A DNA stretch of 63,181 nt, the filler included, from Rhabdomonas costata (Eukaryota): the NCBI GenBank assembly GCA_019059605.1. It is 51 parts of 51 records of this genome, joined end to end, with 100 filler letters (N's around TTAATTAATTAA, not from the genome) between each part and the next. Parts side by side here need not be neighbours in the genome. Positions count along the whole stretch, not along the records: positions 23,579 to 24,719 come from JAHMHO010026577.1; 50 more parts are not named here. The stretch is one strand, 5' to 3'. The notes under the pieces are model-generated. The model did no database searches and had not been told where the DNA came from. It worked only from the letters and a program-made list of their open reading frames with translations. Each line of letters begins with the position of its first letter. Positions within the stretch are counted from its first letter, which is position 1. A program made the translations under genes and the position numbers. Positions 4,669 to 45,920 of the stretch are shown here, in pieces.

Positions 4669-4971
4669 CTGGAAAAACCCACATAACTCAGTACATAAAT
4701 GGGATACATCATGATTGCCAGTTTTCCAGTATATTATCACCTCCCTCGTAACCCGCACCACCCCACCCGTCTTTCCTTCGATGGCATCGGCTGCGGCAGA
4801 ATCGGTGCAGGACTTCTCGAGGACACAGGAATCCGGTCGTCAGCACCGGCGAGCACCCCAACCNNNNNNNNNNNNNNNNNNNNNNNNNNNNNNNNNNNNN
4901 NNNNNNNTTAATTAATTAANNNNNNNNNNNNNNNNNNNNNNNNNNNNNNNNNNNNNNNNNNNNGGTGGGGG

Positions 4972-6104
4972 GTGAACGCAGTCGCCATTTCTCCCGATGG
5001 CAGCCGTGTTGTCAGCGGAAGTGACGACAAGACTATCAGGGTGTGGAATCTTGGGACAGGAGAGCAGGAAAGAACTCTTCGTGGGCACGCTGGTTTCGTG
5101 TATTCCGTTGCCGTCACTCCCGATGGCACCTGCATTGTCAGTGCGAGTGATGACAAGATGATTATAGTTTGGAGTGTGGGGACAGGAAAGGTGAAGACAG
5201 TTCTGTCTGGGCATTATAGCGCGGTGCACTCTGTTGCCGTGACTCCCGATGGCACCCGCGTTGTCAGTGGAAGTGATGACAGGAAAATCAAGGTCTGGAA
5301 TCTGGAGAGTGGGAGGGAGGAAAAATGTCTAACTGGGCACACTCGCGGGGTGACCTCCGTTGCTGTCACTCCCGATGGCGCTGGCGTTGTCAGCGCAAGC
5401 AACGGCAGAACGATTAGGGTGTGGAACCTGGAGACAGCAACGGGGGAAAGCATCCTTGTTGGGCACACTGGTCCAGTCAAGTCCGTCGTGATTACGTTCG
5501 ATGGCACCCGCGTCGTCACAGGAAGTGATGACAAGACGATTAAAGTATGGGCTCTGGGTAAAGGAAGGAAGGAAAGAACTTTTGCTGGACACTGTCGTGG
5601 CGTGAATTCAATTACCGTTACTCCCGATGACTTCTGGATTGTCAGTGGAAGTGATGACAAGACAGTTAAGGTATGGAATCTGGAGACCGGGAGAGAGGAA
5701 AGAACACTTGCTAGCCACACTGGTTTCGTGAGGTCAGTTTTCGTTGCTGCGGATGGAAGCCTCGTGGTCAGCGGAAGTGATGACAAGACGATTAAGGTGT
5801 GGAGTCTGTTGACTGGAAAGGAGGAAAGAACTCTTGCCGGACACAGTTGTGAGGTCAGATCGGTTGCCATCACTCCGGACGGAACCCGCGTTGTGAGTGG
5901 AAGTGATGACAAATCGATAAAGGTGTGGTACCTGGAGACCAGAAAGGACGAAAGAGCTCTTGCTGGGCACACTTCTTTCGTAACATCCGTTGCCGTCACC
6001 CCCGATGGCACCCGCATTGTTAGTGGAAGTGGTGATCGTTCTATCAAGGTTTGGAATTTGGGCACGGCGAAGGAGGAGAAAGCTCTTGTTGGACATGCTC
6101 AAAC
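4972..6104 (+). CDS. WD40-repeat protein fragment, about 9 highly similar 42-aa repeats, open at both ends
   Basis: Uninterrupted ORF across the contig with repeats GH...V.SVAVTPDGTRVVSGSDDKTIKVWNLETG.EERTL. Confidence 0.95.
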
Positions 6105-6559: not shown

Positions 6560-9284
6560 GTATGCGTGTCGCGCGCGCATGCGTGTGGGGTGTGTGAATT
6601 CGTTCGCTCCGATGTCTCTACCCCTCGCAGTTTCCTGCAGCCGGCAGCGCCCTTCGAGGTGCTAGTGCAGCAGGTCTGTAGCGTCCATTGCGAAGCGCTC
6701 CACAGCTGCGCGTGGGTTGGAACATCGACTGCTCTGTCATCTTCATGGGTTCTTTGAAGGGGGTGTTTTCCCCCGCACCTTGAGTGCGCGTCACTCCCGA
6801 CCTGACAACGTCTCCATCTTCCTGTCTTCCTTTTTGTAACTGCTGTACTCCTTAGCCCAAGCCGTACTTTGTATCATCTGTGCCAGCCCCTGTCCATGGC
6901 TAGGGGGGAGGGCTGCCCTTCACCCTTCACCATCACGCCTGAGTGAGATCAGCATGTCCAATGTCCCATGTTCCTGGCTGGTGGACCGGTGAATGGGCAC
7001 CAGGAACACAGCTTGAGATGGATGGGGATATCCCTCTGAGCATTCTTCACTTTCGGTGCCCCAGCTAGCCCCGTGAGCGAAGGGATTGACGGCTGGAATG
7101 AATTCGCTGGGTGCCCCCGTAGCGGACCTTGAGCCCCCCCATACGGGATATGCCTCAAGCACCAGTGTTGGACGGGTGAGGTTCGCGGGTGGAGGGGGCG
7201 AGGATGTGCGCAATCGAGGTTCAGCATCTTACTCCCTCACCTCGTCTTTCTCCCAGCTGGTTGCTGTTAAGCAATGGAAGTTTTGCTCAAACGGGGACAC
7301 CTACTCAGCTCCGCGTCCGTGTCTTCGTGCTCTACCACCCACACCNNNNNNNNNNNNNNNNNNNNNNNNNNNNNNNNNNNNNNNNNNNNTTAATTAATTA
7401 ANNNNNNNNNNNNNNNNNNNNNNNNNNNNNNNNNNNNNNNNNNNNGGTGGGGTGTACTTGGGCTGATGATGGCGATTGCCGTGCCGGGGGGACAAAGATC
7501 CCCGCCACGGCAATCGCCATCATCAGCCCAAGTACAACCCAGAAGGACACAGCCTTTGGAAGTAACCTCCGCAGCGGCATCTTTCTACGACACCGCAGAC
7601 ATGACCCGGCGGCAGCGGTGAAATGGCAGTCGAGAAGAAGGGCAAGCCCTGCCTCTCCCCTCCCCCTAAAAGGGGTCTATGAGTGAGTAAAAGAAGCAAC
7701 CCAAGGAAGCGGAACAATGGAGGAGGGCACTAAATTGAAAAAGAAGAGCAATCCCTGGAGCAGACAGCATGGTGTCAATAGCAATAGAATCACTGTGAAA
7801 CTTCACGGGGTCTGGAAAATCTCTCTGTGTGTGGGGTAAAGAGAAGTCACATCGCTTCCAAAAAATGGCACGAGCGCATCAGTGCGGTAGGGTCCCGGGC
7901 CGTCGCGAGGCCGTGCTGTTTCCATAATTTACAAGCCTCTTCGGCCACGCTGTGACATAGTGAGAATAGTATTTCAGGGAGATCTCAGAAGGGCACGTCT
8001 TCACAACACCATCAACTATCAACTGCATTTCGACCACGCACCACGTTCAGGAAAAACCACACCTATCACACCAATCTCTTTCAGACGGTGCCTCCGCAGT
8101 ATTCAAATTTGGTAAGCATAATTCCAGTGGGCATCATAAGAAAACGGAATTCGAACACGCGCTACAACAAGCACAGGTGACACACACTGCTGCACAGAAG
8201 GACGGCGCAGGTGTCTGCACAGGGCATCAATAATCTCGCGAGGTCCGTCGAACGCATCACCACCACCACCCACCCGGCTCTTGCTACCGTTGCCTTGCCA
8301 TTCGCAAGGCAGGACCGCAGGGGGAGGGGAGGGTGGTGGGGCGATCTAAGCCAGAGCCTCGCACACAGAAATAGGCACGCAAGCACTGAGCAGGGACCAC
8401 TGCCGGTGGGCAACCCTCCGCGGGTGGCCTACCACTTCCCCCCACACACCTCAGCACTCCAACTCCAAACCACACAGCAGAGGCACCGGTACAACAAAGG
8501 CGAAGGGGAACAGCGCGATCACCACAGAAATGCGGGCAAACCGCAGCCGATGCAAGACCTCCCACACACCCCAAACACACACAACANNNNNNNNNNNNNN
8601 NNNNNNNNNNNNNNNNNNNNNNNNNNNNNNTTAATTAATTAANNNNNNNNNNNNNNNNNNNNNNNNNNNNNNNNNNNNNNNNNNNNGTTTTGTTTGCTTC
8701 CCGCTGCAGAAGCATTCTGCCATTCTTTGCTTCTCATATGTCACTCACGTGAAAGAACACTGCTTGTGTTGTGCTGTGACGCTCTTTGCTACTGCGATGT
8801 GCAGGTACTGTTTTGCTGACAATAAAGTCGCCTTTGTTTTATGGTTTTCGCGTGCGCGCGTGTGGAAACCTGTGTGAAAAAACCACGTTTGATTGAAAGG
8901 AGATGGGGCGCCAAGCTCGGATTTGAGCCGATGCCTCGGGTCCCTTGGTGAACTCTTGATTCAGTGAGGTTGAGCTGCATGTGTCTGGAATCTGCTGGGC
9001 GGTCTCTAGCTGCGTGTGCAACAACGAGAGAATGCGAGTGAACGTCCCTAGTTACCCAGCTTGATAAAAGTTCGCTTAAAGCCAAAGGAACGGGAAACAC
9101 CCAATACCAAAGAAGGGAAATTCCGGCAAAGCATACAGTTTTCAACAACTGAGTCTACAACTTGAGTGAAGCAAAGAGGCCTTCAGGGGACCTTCAAGGA
9201 AAGCAACTCAACTCTTGACTTGCTGGTAAGGCCATTTCAGCACATAAAAAAGGGCCAGGGAGGATCCAGCACTCCAGCCCATAC

Positions 9285-9827
9285 CGTGCCGTGGCCGGGT
9301 CAAAGGCCAGGTTCTGCAGCATGGCCGCCTGCAGCCCCAGGACCTCCGGGCTGTGACCCAGCGCCAGGCTTGACCGCAGGCTCTCCAGACCCAGCAAGGG
9401 CGCGCCGCACGACATCATCACGGCCGCCGCGGAGTCGCTGGCTGTGAGGCTAAGCAGCACACCAAGCAGCCTGCGCAGTAGTTCTTGGGGGCGTGGGGCG
9501 GAGGCTGGGAGCAGCCCAAGCAGAGTTGCCAGGCCCCCCTCGAGCTCCATGAACGAAGCCTGACAGGGAACAGGTGGTTGCCGTACAACGAGTGAGTTCC
9601 CGGCTTTCTCGGCCTTAGTCACGGACCGACAAACGGAAAGCAGTCAACGGTTCTTAAATGACTGGAAGCTAGGGGAAGTTGTGTAATTGTGGCACAACAA
9701 AGCAAGGGAGCGATGGCTATAGCGAAAGGGGGAGACGAGGAAAGAGGTAGCTGGTCCTCACACCACGGCGGGCTCATCCACCAGAAGCTGCCATAGCGCA
9801 CCGCAGAGGTGTACCGCCAGAACATCG
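9285..9827 (-). CDS. Two exons of an Armadillo-like helical repeat protein
   Basis: Exon 9285-9559 (AG...GTATGG) encodes FMELEGGLATLLGLL...LLGVLLSLT...AAMLQNLAFD; the upstream exon encodes HLCGALWQLLVD. Confidence 0.55.
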
Positions 9828-11220
9828 NNNNNNNNNNNNNNNNNNNNNNNNNNNNNNNNNNNNNNNNNNNNTTAATTAATTAANNNNNNNNNNNNNNNNN
9901 NNNNNNNNNNNNNNNNNNNNNNNNNNNGGGCTTAGGGATTTCAGGATGTGGGGATTTCTGAGTCGAAGGGTTCACGTGATGGATGTGGTGATGTGCATGA
10001 CTGTACTGCCTTGATGTGTGATGGTGATGCCTTGCGTGTTTCTGGGGCCTTGGGTTTGAGGGTGTGAGGAATTCGAGGGGGTAGGGTGCATTTCTGTGAG
10101 GATTGAGAGTGAGAAGGAGTGTAAAGTGCATTCCTATCGCAGATGCCTTCATCCTTCCTGACTCCGGGATGCCTCGATGCTCTCGACATCCCTCCGTACC
10201 TGATGCTTTACTCCGATTCTTACGTTCCTTGACTCGGGGACACTTACTACTACGGCATGTCGCTAACGCACCATGCCTTCGTTCTTTCATGCTTCTGTCT
10301 TTGTTGCTTCAGTGAGGATTTACGGGATGTAGGGGCATTTTGTGTTCTTTGCTGGTCGTGAGATCCTTGCGTCTCTCACTCCCTATGAATGATGGTTCAC
10401 TCGTTCCCCGGTACCCGGTCCACTCGTTCACCTTACCCTGAGTTCTCTTCCTCCGGCCTCGCCCGGTCGGATCTCCACGTACCGCCTTATGGCGGGGAGT
10501 GGAGAGGAGAGACACGTATAGAAGAGTAAAGAGAGGGAGGGGCGACAACGTACCCCCAACAGCGACAAGCTGACACCAGGAAACCTGCAATGAGCAGTAA
10601 CTTCAGGTGTACTGCCCCCTTCGCAAAGCCTATCCAAAGTTGAGAGCAGAGAGAGCCCCAAAAGGGCACATCATACCCGACTGCAACCCTACTCCCTCGG
10701 CACCATCCCCAACGGGGACTCCGTATGCTCCACCATTTCCACCAGCCGGCGCGGGGAAAGAATATCAAAAAATTTGGACTCCTTTTCCTGCAGTGTGACG
10801 AGGAACTGAGCCACGGCATCCTCACTGGTCATCTCTAACAGAACATGCTCCGCCAATGGCACCATGGTGCCAGAAAACGCACCCGAGCCTCGCAGGGAGG
10901 GCCGCTGGAATAGTTTCTGCGTGGGAGAGTACGACAGAGAGTGCGAAGTGAAGGTCCCCGCGAGAGTAAGTGCGGATGCAAGCCACAGGTGCAAACCACC
11001 AAAACACACAAAGAGCAGCACCAGCACCAGGGAGATGGTCGCCTGCAGTAAATGAATGCACAAACCACNNNNNNNNNNNNNNNNNNNNNNNNNNNNNNNN
11101 NNNNNNNNNNNNTTAATTAATTAANNNNNNNNNNNNNNNNNNNNNNNNNNNNNNNNNNNNNNNNNNNNGGTTTTTGGTTAAACAATTTAAAAAAAAAGCG
11201 CTGGTGCCTTTTGGGGCCGG

Positions 11221-11650
11221 GAGCCCCTCCCTTTTATCTAGTACATTTTCGGGACCCCCTCCCAATTGGTGCATTTTACCCGGGGTAGCTGGTGTCTGCT
11301 TTTTGGGGCCGAGGGTGGATGGGGTAGGTGGCGCGAAGCCGTAGGCGAGTGACTCTGCGCGGCGAAGCGGCGCAGAGTCAAAAAAAAATATGAAAACAAC
11401 TTCTCCCCTTACACAAATGTAAGAAAAGAAATCTGCCGAGGGTAAGCAAAAGAGTCTCTGATTTCTCTTCCTTTCTGGTTGTTTAATGGGTGTACGGGTA
11501 CACCCTCACTTTCTCTTGCCTCGACATTTGAAATCTCACTCCTTTCCGCGTCTAAAAGCATATGAAATCACAAGAAAACCCGGGGTCTGTAAAGTGCACA
11601 AACTGGAGGGGGTCTCCGAAATGCACTAGATAGGGGGGTCCCCATAATGC
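11221..11650. mobile_element. Candidate MITE-like element with imperfect inverted ends
   Basis: 11221-11280 and 11589-11640 are imperfect inverted repeats (ATCTAGTRCATTT..GACCCCCTCC..GTGCAYTTTAC); a related motif recurs at 26682-26770. Confidence 0.5.
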
Positions 11651-13056
11651 ATGCACAATTTTAAAAAAACATTCGGCACCGCTCCACATTTCTCCCCGAA
11701 AACGTTTCTGGACACACCACAGGGAAAAACAGTGAATAAGCCGCCAAGGCGAGAGCAAGGCCGTCGGGGGCAAAGCTTTGAAGTCCGTAGTACATTGCGG
11801 AGATGGGAAGCCCTGCACAAACCCGCACCCCACACACGGAGGAAACACAGACGAACGTTCGTGGCGGATTCTGGGGTCTTCAGGTTCGATCGTTTTCGGC
11901 CTAATCAGCGTACAGCCAAGCTAGGTTACCACCGCTTTCGTCTGTATTATTCGAAGAGAGAACTTTAAGATGCGAGATATTTCGGCATTTTACGGAAATT
12001 TCCAGTAGCAATGTATGCTATGTTCAGATATTTGGTTTTGCTTGTCCTGGTCACAAGGATACTAAGACCCGTTATGCAATTCAGAGAATTCAGTCCGTAA
12101 TGTTTCGAGCTGAAGTCTTTTTGGCTAGTAGTTATACCCCTGGGGTTGGGTGGCCCATGCTGTCCCTTCGTAAATGCGCAAGATTGTAAGCTCTTGGATT
12201 TAGGTGTCGCGTGCTGTATTGAAAATTGCCGCTGTTAACACGCAGTTATTTCCCTTTCGAAAGGGACATAACTGCGTGTTAACAGCGGCAATTTTCAATA
12301 CACAAACACNNNNNNNNNNNNNNNNNNNNNNNNNNNNNNNNNNNNNNNNNNNNTTAATTAATTAANNNNNNNNNNNNNNNNNNNNNNNNNNNNNNNNNNN
12401 NNNNNNNNNTTTGTGGGGGGTTCCGAAAAACGCGTTTTTATCCTGATTTAAGGGTTTTTTGAGGCTCTGGGGACGGATTTTGGGGGCAAAATGCCTTGAA
12501 AAGGGGGCTGTGCTGTTTGCTGAAAGACGCATGCACGTGCAGATGAGGCGGACGCTGTTGACGTCACTTTTTTCTCCTGTTTTTGACAGCTTTGCATCTG
12601 AAACAATAAATGAATCAATGGCTCTTGGTGTGAAGCGCTCTTTCAGTGAACTTGTTGGGTCCGAGTTACAAAACGGCCAAAAGGATGGGGGTATGCCGAG
12701 GGGAGGCTTTTTTATTTTGACCTGATAGTCGACCCGATAAATTTTCGATCGCATCTGACATCCATTGCCATTTAGTGTGGCGGATGAAACAAAAATAGCA
12801 CCCCATCAGGAACTCCCGCAACTGCAAGAATTCCACGAGAACTCATCTGTGATGTTACGTTGAGTCCAGGTTGGACGACCCCAACAGGAACAAGTGTCCA
12901 CAGATTTTGGTTGGGTTTTCTTTTGATTTTTTCTTCTACTGGCGGAAATCGGAACAGGGCGTGCCCACACAAACGGGGTGCCAATAGTAAGCCTTAGACA
13001 CGAAGAAATATATTTACATTTGTTTCGACACAAATAAACACAATCCCAAGACCAAA

Positions 13057-13347
13057 ATGTTCAGAAAATACCCGACAACAGGTATGGGTGCTGCGCACCG
13101 GCCCCGAGTTACACGTTCGGACACCATGCATTCGCATTCGTTTTCTTTTGATTACTCAGGAACTTCACCAGCCTTGTTCGAGGACTCGGACCTGGTTCTC
13201 GTGGTTGGAGACGCTGACTTTGTGTTTTTTGTGAAGCTTTGTGAATTGATTCCAGGAATCAGGATCATTGCCACCACTTTGGATTCGCAGGTCGGCCAGC
13301 TTTTTTCTCTCACGCGGCTCTTTTCTTCTCACTCAGATGAGGGTTAA
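13057..13347 (+). CDS. 5' exons of a BMT5/DUF2431-like rRNA methyltransferase
   Basis: Exons 13057-13081 and 13160-13290 (78-nt GT-AG intron) give MFRKYPTTGTSPALFEDSDLVLVVGDADFVFFVKLCELIPGIRIIATTLDSQ, resembling the LLVGEGDFSF...ATS.DS motif; possible micro-exon 13337-13347. Confidence 0.6.
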   Translation: MFRKYPTTGMGAAHRPRVTRSDTMHSHSFSFDYSGTSPALFEDSDLVLVVGDADFVFFVKLCELIPGIRIIATTLDSQVGQLFSLTRLFSSHSDEG

Positions 13348-16132
13348 GTGAGCCAATAAAACAAAAGCGAAAATGCCTTTTGATCGTAAAATTTGTTCAA
13401 TTCATTTTCACACACAAAATGGCAATGACTCTTTGTCGAGAAGAGCCGGGCACACACACAGGATTGATTGCATTGGGTTGGATTGCGTCGCACGAAGCGC
13501 GGGTTGAGCAGAGTTCTTTACATGGGGTTAGGTGGCGACGCAACCCCAACNNNNNNNNNNNNNNNNNNNNNNNNNNNNNNNNNNNNNNNNNNNNTTAATT
13601 AATTAANNNNNNNNNNNNNNNNNNNNNNNNNNNNNNNNNNNNNNNNNNNNGGGGTGGTGTTCAAATGTAAGCAGGAACAGCTGCTCCCATCAGGAATGAT
13701 CATGGCTTATAACTTATTCAATTCCCCATTGCCATTGCCCTGCCACAATATTGTTGATACGGCGAAAGAACTGTTTGTTGTGAAAGTGAACGTGTATGCC
13801 TCGATCGGGTCGCAAAGGTGAGTTATGGTGGATCAGCGGCCCTCCCACGTTATTATCATTTCAAAGATGTACACAAATGCAAGCAGCAGTCTACTCAACC
13901 TGCCCCAATGGAATTGCAACTTTGGTCGGATTACCGATCCTCTAAGTGCTGTTCACGTGATTTTGCAGGTAGGGATCGGGAATTGCTGGTGCTTTCTGGT
14001 ACGTTTTTGTGGGTACAGCGGACCGTAGCTTTCCCTGTAAGGCACCTTCCCTTCAGCCGTCCCTTCTGTGGTGAGGTCCCCAGGGGTGGTTCTGCGGAAG
14101 GGGAGCCGTGGCTGCCGATGGAAGAGGGGCTCCGGCAGAGGCTAAGGAAGCTTGCCCCACGGTGGGGCCAGGGCCACGCCAAGGCAATTGAGGCCCAGGG
14201 CTGCGCCTCGTCATGGTTCCTGGGTTTGTTCTGTCCTTCCCCTGCATCCACTTCCCCCGTTCCAAAATACCCAAGTGGCATGTGTTGTTCCGCCCCATCC
14301 TCATAGCGCAGGGTATTGGTTCCGCTGGTTTGGGATTATGGGTAGAGCCATGTAATGCGATGGAAGGTGAATTGCCAAAGGAGTGAGGACGTTCTCCAGC
14401 TCATGCACGGAATCTCCCAGGAAGGAAAAGAACAGCCCCCCAAGGATGTACACCAAAAAGAGCACATTCACCACCTCACCCCCTTTATATTGCGGTGGTT
14501 GGTTAACTGCCCGTAATCTAACCGCCTCCAAACTGTATCCGAATCACCGAAAGCAAAGGGTTCTTGTTCTCCTTTACAATTGAATTCTGCCTGGTATTTC
14601 ATGATTTGTTTTGGCGTGTATGCGGATGTTTTTATTGTCCCCTGTCCCGGACCTCTTTGGGAAATTTCCTCCTGCTTTTTATCTCGCCCTCAACTCCAGT
14701 GTTGTGCAGGTTCAGTCGGATTGATCTGCCGATATTTGGTAATGTTTTTTGAATTTTAAGAGATTCTTAGACGATGTTCGCACACCCCCCCNNNNNNNNN
14801 NNNNNNNNNNNNNNNNNNNNNNNNNNNNNNNNNNNTTAATTAATTAANNNNNNNNNNNNNNNNNNNNNNNNNNNNNNNNNNNNNNNNNNNNTGTTTGTGT
14901 TACGGGTTGCCGCACACGGGTGCGCAGTTTAGATTCTTCGTCCCGGGACTCGAAAACCTCCACAATGGTCTCGAACTTCAATTACGGGCAGCCATCCGAA
15001 ACCGTCCTTCTCGTTGCACGTTTTTTGCCTCGTGGCGTTCCTTATGGCCTTGTTCCTCTTTCCTCTTTGAACGAACTCGTGCAACTCAACTTTGTGTTTT
15101 CTTTCTTTTTTTTTGGTTTCTTTCCTCCTTCCTCTGAACTAAGCGGAGGCTGGAGCTTGAGCGCTTTTACCCTTTCCCGAACTCCCTCATTTGGCCACGT
15201 GAGCTCTCTGATTCCTCTGCCAAATGCAGGTGGAGCCCTACTCTCAAGGCATCGGGGTGACCTCGCCGGACATCCCTGGGGTCCAGGCCGCCTGGGAAGA
15301 GCCCCGCACCACCACCTCCAAGCTGATGCCCGCCCACGTGAGGAAGGTTTCGAAGGTTTCGACAAGAAGCAGCGCCGCCTCGTCTGCACGCTCCGCTGGC
15401 GCAGGTCCCTTTGCACCGCTTTCTATATTTCCATGAATTGAGTTTCCCTCTTTTTCTTCTTTACTGCAGTACTCTCGCTACATGCCTGGCTGCTTTTTTC
15501 TTCGGCTGTGATTTATGTCCTCCGCTCTGAGGATCACAACAGTGAGTGCGTGCAAAATTATCTCGAGGATTCCGAAATTGGGGGCAAGGTGGATAATGGA
15601 TTCCTTCGGGATTTAGCAAAATTATTTCTTTTGTCTGGATGCCCAGAGGGAGCTTTTGACAACAATAAGACGAGACATCGGCGACATCGGGACCCCGTGC
15701 TGTGGAAAGAACATGCGTTGCATCTTCCTGCTTAGGTTTAGCAGTGCTGAGGCTTTACTGAGACTCGCTTTCGATGAGTTTCCCAGTGTATTCTTGCAGT
15801 GTGACGGAGGGTACGGAATAACTTCCTCTCCTTGCGAGAAGACTTTCTTCTTTTTTCTCAATGAAAAACAACGGATCACGAACGTCGGGGCAATGATTTG
15901 ATGTGATTTCTTTTTCCTTTGGGTCGTGCTCAGCGGCAGCGGGTACCTGTCTTGGGGTGTCCAAACTTCCGGGAAGCGCCTCTTCCTCCCCGCGGAGCAG
16001 CCGACGTCCCGGAAGTTTGGACACCCCAAAACNNNNNNNNNNNNNNNNNNNNNNNNNNNNNNNNNNNNNNNNNNNNTTAATTAATTAANNNNNNNNNNNN
16101 NNNNNNNNNNNNNNNNNNNNNNNNNNNNNNNN

Positions 16133-23578: not shown

Positions 23579-24718
23579 GGTGTTTTGTATCGTTAAATCA
23601 TTGTTTAATGTTGATACAACATTTTTAATTTTTGCTTCTTCTTTTTCTTTTGCATTATTTAAATAATTTATTATATCATTTAGTTCTGTTTTTATTTTTG
23701 GAAAATATAAAGTTATATATGTTAATAATAAATTATCAAGTTCTTGTTTTGAAGCAGAATATTGTAATCCTAATTCATTATAGATATCAACTAGGAAAAT
23801 CTCATTATTTATCATGTATTCATTATAATCATTTAGGATACGATATTCGTCATTATCTTTTTTAAATCGATTCATAATTTTATTATTTGTTTTTATTTGA
23901 CTTAAATTTTTTTCTAATTTTTCGTAAATAACTAAATCATTAGGTTCAACATCAAATGATAATAATTTATTTTTATAAATCCATTTAAATTCTAATGGTA
24001 TTTTTTCTAATTTACCATTAAACATATAAGATGACCAAATATATTGTCGTGATGGTATTATAAAATTTGTTTTTCCGAATTTTTTATTACTTTTTATTGA
24101 ACAACATATTTTATTTTTAATTGTTTTTATTGTATCATCATTATATATAAATTGATTTTTTACATAATTCTTTTTATATACATTTTCTAATTTTGTATCA
24201 TATATGTTATTATCATTTGATGTATCAAATTCTACATAATTATTTAAAGTTAATCTATCATCATCATCATTCATATTTATAATTGTTTTTATTTTTTGTG
24301 TTGTTTCATCTATTTTTGTATCAATAACATCGATATCTTTTAATATTTCGTCAACATCAATATTTTGTTCTTCATCTTTAATATTAATGTCATCTAAATC
24401 TAAATCATCCATACTTTCAATTTCATCTACATTTCCACCATATTGTTGTTTTTGTTTTGTTAATAAAGACGTTTTTAATGTTACCGGTACATTATTTTTT
24501 AAATCTACTTGATCTTCATCAGTAAATTTAATGTTTTTTATTTTATCAGACAGTTGAGATTCGAATTCATATTTTGTGCTTGTTATTAAATTTTTAGTAT
24601 TTGTATGTTTATCAACCCATTGTTCACTCATTTTTTGTTTTAATTTATTTTTTTCTTCAGAATTATTTTTAATTTTACTAAAAAATAAATTAATATGTTC
24701 AATATTAAAAAATTTTGA
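23579..24718 (-). CDS. Giant-virus (Mimiviridae-like) protein fragment, probably early transcription factor large subunit
   Basis: About 20% GC by eye, intronless, frame open across the whole contig. Motifs DDTIKTIKNKICCSIK, IIPSRQYIWS, DVEPN, NNEIFLVDIYNELG and YFPKI match my recollection of Mimiviridae/Klosneuvirinae VETF-L. Confidence 0.75.
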
Positions 24719-24819
24719 ANNNNNNNNNNNNNNNNNNNNNNNNNNNNNNNNNNNNNNNNNNNNTTAATTAATTAANNNNNNNNNNNNNNNNNNNNNNNNN
24801 NNNNNNNNNNNNNNNNNNN

Positions 24820-44674: not shown

Positions 44675-45657
44675 GTGTGGTGGGCGAGGACTTCGGGACC
44701 TAACTCAATGCACACCATATGAAAGGTCCCTCGGGTCGTCAGCTCCAGTGGACCAGTGTCAAGATGGAGTATGACGGGGCGGCCTCCAGGCAGATCGGAG
44801 CACAAGATCTCCGTCTTCCCGAGGTGCAGCGGGAGGCCCAGCAGCTGGCACCAGTGGTGGTAGGCGTTGACAAGCACCTGCACATCCTGCAGTGTGGTGG
44901 TGAGGAGGCAGACATCGTCCGCAAAGCTGCTTGAGGCGAGGTACTCACCGTCCAGCTCAACTCCGAGCTGCTGGGAGGCAGCCCAACGATAGAAGGGCTC
45001 GAAGAACACGATCATCAGGTCAGGGCTGGCAGGACAGCCTTGGGCGAGTCCGTTAGCCATACTCCAATTGGAGCCATCTAGTTGGCCGTAACGGAAGTGC
45101 TGCTGCAACCCCGCGTAGAAGTTCTGAAAGGCCCGTATCACCACAGCCGGGATTCCAGCCTCTTTCATCACCCCTAAGAGCGACCACCAGGGGATCGACT
45201 GGAAGCACTTCGTGACATTGAACTTCACTAGCCACAGAGGTTGGCCGCGGCGTCGCTGAAGCTCAATGACGTCAGAGAGGAGCTGACAGAGATGCAGCAT
45301 GCTGGCCTGGGCGCTGAACCACATGGCTTCGGGGCCAAGGTAAGTTCCTTGAAGAGTCTGGGCCAAGCTCTGCGTGATGCTCTTCGCCAAAAGCCTACAG
45401 ACTACGTCCAACACTGTGATGGGATGCTGGTCTTGGGTACGAGAACCACCTGAGGCCTTGGGGATCATCGCGACATAGGCCTTCAGCAACTCCTCTGGCC
45501 AAATGCCCTCGGACTCCACCAGGTTCAAAAGGTCCGCCACGCTTTGCAGAAAGCTATAGTGAAATACTTCCAGACAGCAATGTGGATGGCCAGGAAGCCA
45601 TGAGAGGAGCTGTATCGCATGGCACCGAGCGCCCAGCGGACGCGATCCAAAGTCCAC
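44675..45657 (-). pseudogene. Non-LTR retrotransposon reverse transcriptase, degenerate
   Basis: WPEELLKAYVAMIPK...HPITVL...NVTKCFQSI...GLAQGCPASP...SFADD are LINE RT motifs; the first catalytic Asp is replaced by Asn. Confidence 0.93.
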
Positions 45658-45920
45658 TGGTCATGAGTCGCAGTGGGGAATGTAGTGGAAGAAGCAGGAA
45701 GCCCGAAACGTCTCCATCGAGCTGGGCCATCGACTGTCGCATGCATCCGCCAAACACCGTGTACCCAATATTGGCATCGTCCACCGCTGCAACTGAGCAG
45801 CACTGCGCTCCCGTNNNNNNNNNNNNNNNNNNNNNNNNNNNNNNNNNNNNNNNNNNNNTTAATTAATTAANNNNNNNNNNNNNNNNNNNNNNNNNNNNNN
45901 NNNNNNNNNNNNNNGTGGTT

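Follow-up and report, generated by a model that had tools for sequence, protein, structure and literature searches.

One contig of the Rhabdomonas costata assembly examined here is likely a genome fragment of an uncultivated Mimiviridae-type (Imitervirales) virus, coding for part of a homologue of VETF-l, the large subunit of the poxvirus early transcription factor VETF, and present as separate DNA in the same amplification as the eukaryote's own DNA. The stretch of DNA that was analysed (63,181 bases, hereafter the window) is made up of 51 contigs of 1139-1145 bp each, joined by N/TTAATTAATTAA spacers. What surrounds any one contig is therefore a set of other contigs from a single fragmented assembly, and not adjacent DNA. 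The contig in question, at 23579..24719, is the only viral one among the 51, and our verdict is that it is real but unremarkable, a stray piece of giant-virus DNA within a sample of amplified eukaryote DNA. The gene family is of a known kind, similar finds from sorted cells are already in print in the parts of the literature cited below, and what is new is the sequence of this particular lineage.

Composition and integrity of the viral contig

The contig at 23579..24719 (1141 bp, with artificial N/TTAATTAATTAA spacers at both sides) has a GC content of 0.19, compared with 0.41-0.61 across the other 50 contigs, which makes it the only strongly AT-rich one, as a preliminary description of this DNA had noted. 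The low GC content extends along the entire contig, with values of 0.14-0.24 throughout when taken per 200 bp, so that there is no host-like flank. On the minus strand, an open frame of 380 codons (23579..24718, protein P0001) crosses the whole contig without a stop and is truncated by both contig ends. The probability of meeting no stop over 380 codons is 4e-20, no open frame longer than 134 codons arose when the contig was shuffled 1000 times with its composition preserved, and the remaining frames of the contig are all at most 90 aa long. Asparagine, lysine, isoleucine and aspartate together account for 46.6% of the residues of P0001. A QYGG motif lies at residues 92-95 (24434-24445, minus strand), and 42% of the 40 residues directly after it are aspartate or glutamate; both glycines of the motif, G94 and G95, fall in columns with a conservation of 90% or more across the protein family described below. 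The intact N/K/I/D-rich frame running end to end and the QYGG motif ahead of an acidic tract, both read from the DNA in the preliminary description, are thus as stated there.

The structural model of the fragment (pLDDT 80, pTM 0.77) divides P0001 into three parts, all encoded on the minus strand. A helical N-terminal part (residues 1-67; 24518..24718) consists of four model helices, with pLDDT mostly 76-94. It is followed by a linker that is predicted to be disordered (residues 68-121; 24356..24517; pLDDT <50), which contains the QYGG motif and in which the acidic tract begins, and by an alpha/beta module (residues 122-380; 23579..24355) that is the best conserved part of the protein. Within this module, residues 182-318 of the model bear a weak, non-significant resemblance to ubiquitin-like proteins; with Z at most 3.9, it is too weak for a ubiquitin-like fold to be claimed.

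An alternative is that such a gene is part of the eukaryote's genome, as an endogenous element derived from giant-virus DNA that was recently integrated. Integration of giant-virus DNA is known in protist and algal genomes, and an intact gene suits a recent insertion as well as it suits a free virus. However, the AT-richness holds all along the contig and is shared by none of the other contigs, no junction or host-like flank occurs on it, and there are no signs of decay. Among 50 family alignment columns with a consensus of at least 80%, P0001 keeps 43 (family median 90%, 5th percentile 77%), and the gene therefore looks functional. Together with the open frame, this agrees with the lack of decay that had been put forward earlier. 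We consider an endogenous origin very unlikely.

The protein family and its placement

Searches with P0001 against longer proteins gave 143 matches at E <= 1e-3. The best two are proteins of 1876 aa (E 3.3e-75) and 1869 aa (E 8.8e-74) with 43-44% identity and 100% query cover, and the best matches are all 1.8-2.0 kaa long. P0001 aligns with residues 71-460 of the metagenomic protein P0002 and with residues 72-494 of Hokovirus_4_66; an alignment to residues ~70-460 of relatives of ~1900 aa places it in the second fifth of the protein. Source names among the matches include 'VETF early transcription factor large subunit [uncultured virus]' and Hokovirus, with a descriptive name attached to one of ten close relatives. 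When the P0001 model was compared with BFVD, it matched a Moumouvirus Monve 'Putative early transcription factor large subunit' (E 1.7e-25) and mimivirus R326, which is labelled uncharacterised (E 8.5e-10). A Pfam search with P0001 at E <= 10 did not detect PF04441, the poxvirus VETF large subunit model, and returned only a sub-threshold match to Dabb; the ESM Atlas gave no usable match for P0001. The assignment of P0001 to a giant-virus gene of Mimiviridae type, labelled VETF large subunit in databases, is supported.

Mimivirus R326 (442 aa) and R327, found as BFVD entries Q5UQR5 and Q5UQR4, are both labelled uncharacterised, and both match the model of the fragment. They look like pieces of a gene that forms one frame of ~1900-2090 aa in relatives, for example at 9107-15376 of locus L027, which is located on a contig of 1,259,197 bp.

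Compared with the Mimiviridae-type VETF-L proteins as a group (Hokovirus_4_66, Gaeavirus A0A3G5A329, Moumouvirus Monve H2EE59, mimivirus R326/R327 and GVMAG proteins), P0001 is collinear over all 380 residues and shows the same features, namely a QxGG motif, an acidic linker and a conserved alpha/beta module. The best metagenomic members are 43-47% identical to it, and Hokovirus 35-39%. P0001 differs from these proteins in that none is closer than ~47% over the fragment, and only ~20% of the gene is present.

Several genomic features of the relatives are those of giant viruses. An alignment-based search of IMG/VR yielded 106 relatives, whereas scanning the IMG/VR viral contigs with the single protein P0001 yielded no match. 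Of these relatives, 79 loci were kept, with GVMAG names for 41 of the 79, and the first 30 of the 79 have GC contents of 0.19-0.39. In both of the relatives' records that were searched with an NCLDV capsid model, 5-6 matches were found. These data bear directly on a non-viral reading, in which the contig would carry an AT-rich cellular or organellar gene of the eukaryote. Organelle DNA can indeed be AT-rich, but nothing else speaks for such an origin: matches that bear a descriptive or organism name are exclusively viral, the rest being 'hypothetical protein' entries or nameless sequences from metagenomes; the relatives' records just mentioned contain NCLDV capsid genes; and at E <= 1e-3 the family has merely 202 representatives among 1.84 billion proteins (best identity 47%). 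A cellular or organellar gene is therefore extremely improbable, and the concern raised earlier that the best matches might turn out to be cellular did not materialise.

The viral gene can be placed further with a quick maximum-likelihood tree (76 rows, 258 columns, LG+G4, SH-aLRT support only), the rows of which are all 75 of alignment A2 plus the L027 open reading frame. P0001 groups with three metagenomic proteins, P0002, P0003 and P0122 (SH-aLRT 97), and the highest identity to P0001 in the tree set is 53% over 254 conserved columns. The L027 frame belongs to a separate starred clade of 11 rows, outside of which P0001 lies. Hokovirus, the only named klosneuvirus anchor, is found elsewhere in the tree, in which the deep branches are unsupported. 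The preliminary description had pointed to a VETF large subunit of Mimiviridae/Klosneuvirinae type. Its Mimiviridae-type part stands (E 3e-75), while a klosneuvirus placement does not follow from the position of Hokovirus, for which there is no strong support either way.

A near-length search for the same virus returned eight matches, which were all short of full length and did not exceed 49% identity. With the best near-length match being partial and at 49%, the virus that encodes P0001 appears, as far as can be judged from sequence, to represent an undescribed lineage, like very many metagenomic giant viruses. This is in line with the earlier suggestion of a possibly undescribed virus, given that the collections searched hold no close relative (best ~47% over the fragment).

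Structural test of the VETF-l assignment

The similarity between this giant-virus family and VETF-l is too remote for HMMs. PF04441 detected none of 24 family members, even at E <= 5, the matches to other models being scattered and due to chance, and Pfam searches with four full-length members gave nothing at E <= 0.01. A profile search of PDB sequences with family alignment A1 remained at chance level (E >= 1.1) and included no vaccinia chain; single-sequence searches of PDB sequences with the whole of P0235, a family member that naturally occurs as an N-terminal piece of 1100 aa, and with its residues 890-1045 returned no match. At the level of structure, the model of P0001 has no match in the PDB by Foldseek at E <= 1e-3, and none at Z >= 5 among 48161 representative chains compared with VIA. 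Since no solved structure corresponds to the fold of the fragment itself, the link to VETF-l rests on parts of the protein that lie outside the window.

These parts are covered by P0235, which was folded with a pLDDT of 77. All 19 of the Foldseek matches of the P0235 model to the PDB at E <= 1e-3 are TBP. VIA alignments with TBP reach Z 9-10.7, with up to 181/181 residues superposed at an rmsd of ~3.5 Å, and they cover model residues 506-854, which are predicted to adopt the canonical two-lobed fold of TBP-like domains, interrupted by long insertions. In the VIA comparison with 48161 chains, five reach Z >= 8, namely three TBPs, 6rfl_K and 8p0j_H. The match to 6rfl_K, from the complete vaccinia RNA polymerase complex, has Z 8.6 with 90/91 residues aligned at 28% identity and covers P0235 residues 901-1034; 8p0j_H comes from the vaccinia intermediate pre-initiation complex and gives Z 8.5. 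A further chain K, 8rqk_K, aligns with Z 8.9 (98/99 residues, 26% identity) within model residues 901-1036. The domain at 901-1036 carries conserved CQNSG and PCCF motifs.

What chain K represents can be gathered from the literature. One passage of PMC12917281 describes a TBP-like domain in VETF-l, which forms a TBP/TFIIB-like pair with Rap94, and illustrates VETF-l from 6RFL; a passage of PMC12618233 describes VETF as mostly mobile in the complete complex and VETF-l as contacting tRNA. From these passages we infer that chain K of 6RFL and 8RQK is VETF-l, of which it would be the ordered piece. An A7L-type factor (NCVOG0261) is present in five of six NCLDV families according to a passage of PMC3493329. 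Taken together, the predicted folds provide a structural argument for calling the Mimiviridae-type proteins 'VETF large subunit', a label for which the P0235 fold is independent, partial support, and the models indicate that the ~1900-aa Mimiviridae-type family is very probably the giant-virus counterpart of VETF-l. Pfam holds no model that detects this family of ~1900-aa Mimiviridae-type 'VETF large subunit' proteins.

Within the modelled architecture, the fragment in the window is the module that directly precedes the TBP-like domain. It stops ~20-35 residues short of that domain, and the TBP-like fold was accordingly found for P0235 only; in full-length relatives, long helices after the alpha/beta module lead into the TBP-like domain.

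The P0235 model resembles vaccinia VETF-l (A7, 710 aa) in having a TBP-like fold followed by a domain that superposes on chain K, the putative VETF-l chain, at 26-28% identity. There are also differences. The giant-virus protein is ~2.7 times longer than vaccinia VETF-l, and the likeness is invisible to PF04441 and to PDB sequence searches. The TBP-like domain of P0235 can be aligned over the full length of the canonical TBP core, but that of vaccinia is described as atypical, with an extended hinge, in a passage of PMC12917281. In addition, the N-terminal module in the window is without counterpart among solved structures. Another long non-pox homologue is ASFV G1340L (1340 aa by name), which a passage of PMC11579359 presents as a VETFl homologue that is packaged with the polymerase. 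Among weak BFVD matches of the P0001 model are three proteins of 1240-1426 aa (E 0.015-0.07, probability 0.92-1.0), one of which is a protein of an abalone asfa-like virus.

The function of the complete protein can be proposed by analogy with vaccinia. The contig would encode the N-terminal module of a VETF-l homologue of ~1900 aa, comprising the helical part, the acidic disordered linker and the alpha/beta domain. The full-length homologue would be expected to pair with a D6-type helicase subunit, and its TBP-like domain, starting just downstream of the fragment, may bind and bend early promoters. In this way the homologue could recruit the virus's own RNA polymerase, which would be packaged in the particle.

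Source of the viral DNA

The viral contig starts with a 10-nt G/T-only tail (23579..23588, plus strand) that is probably an amplification primer; the frame's three final residues, QNT, are encoded by it. Relatives have ENE at this position, so that QNT probably derives from the primer and not from the virus. At the 5' end, 31 of the 51 contigs carry a run made up solely of G and T that is 8 nt or longer and usually measures 10-11 nt, and at the 3' end 34 carry the complementary C/A-only run; as a control, the reversed arrangement of G/T and C/A end runs occurs on none of the 51. Examples in the window are located at 1-10, 7446-7455 and 8561-8586. The contig-end tails are the residue of a degenerate G/T whole-genome-amplification primer that was left in the assembly. 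Degenerate G/T primers are used in some single-cell kits. Primer tails left in an assembly can add false codons at contig ends. The viral contig, which has the tail at one end only, thus shares with the host contigs the G/T tail that the preliminary description had pointed out. The presence of the tail indicates that the viral fragment and the DNA of the eukaryote were amplified in the same kind of way, and consequently it is not due to a later mix-up of assemblies.

We propose that the viral DNA was not part of the host's DNA but was present separately when the DNA of the eukaryote underwent primer-based whole-genome amplification. That it was separate from host DNA we infer from composition alone. 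The source may have been an infecting, ingested or attached virus, and the tail and composition fit viral DNA that was present alongside the cell, through infection, in a food vacuole or as an attached particle. Free viral DNA or cross-library carry-over would fit the tail and composition equally well. This raises the possibility of a contaminant without any biological tie to the eukaryote, either as viral DNA or a virus particle that was free in the sorted droplet or as bleed from another library made with the same kit, amplified or sequenced alongside. Such a source is suggested by the fact that the viral contig is alone among 51 and by the abundance of such giant viruses in metagenomes, as reflected in the family representatives and IMG/VR relatives counted above; moreover, a tail at one end indicates just the same kind of primer. 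Nothing speaks directly against it, and the tail, as evidence for the same kind of amplification, argues only against a later assembly mix-up. We regard a contaminant as rather unlikely. A genome piece of an uncultivated Mimiviridae-type virus, amplified together with the eukaryote's DNA, remains our preferred explanation.

A real infection of the source eukaryote, by a member of a clade known only from three metagenomic proteins, is a more specific proposition and, in our view, an unlikely one. If true, it would provide the first host link for this clade. Host links are scarce for the thousands of giant-virus lineages that are represented solely in metagenomes, and single amplified cells are one of the few routes towards them. 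One fragment of 1.1 kb is insufficient for a host link; it does flag the assembly for further screening for viral contigs. Passages of PMC6789865 and PMC6792449, on ChoanoVirus and related work, report that giant viruses were obtained along with sorted cells of wild protists. Those finds are of the same kind as the present one, Mimiviridae-type DNA in amplified eukaryote DNA. As described in those passages, however, they comprise near-complete genomes and an identified host, as opposed to the single 1.1-kb fragment in this case.

The other contigs of the window are mostly without recognisable genes in Pfam and Rfam searches. Among frames of at least 130 aa, 60 of 62 were submitted to Pfam (the two omitted being the P0001 frame and the antisense of the WD40 frame), and three of the 60 had matches, to WD40, RVT_1 and CPH/Cul7. 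For frames of 85-129 aa, of which 150 of 167 were submitted, there was a single match, to LRR, and Rfam gave 0 matches on the window. This picture fits a gene-poor eukaryote genome, and the host genome appears to be large, gene-poor and retroelement-bearing; none of these matches points to a euglenozoan in particular. The RVT_1 match (E 2e-19) identifies the reverse-transcriptase frame of a retroelement at 44677-45660 on the minus strand, the relatives of which, with up to 62-70% identity, are nearly all on short metagenome contigs, plus the EukProt entry 'RCo006024'; its Atlas neighbours are all eukaryotic, and the frame may offer a lead to the lineage of the host. The leucine-rich repeat (E 2.7e-8) and the CPH/Cul7-type domain (E 1.6e-10) are both on the minus strand, at 57084-57377 and 58486-58932, respectively. 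Finally, a contig-long frame on the plus strand at 4966-6102, which carries no taxonomic signal, contains nine WD40 repeats with a very regular period of 42 residues.
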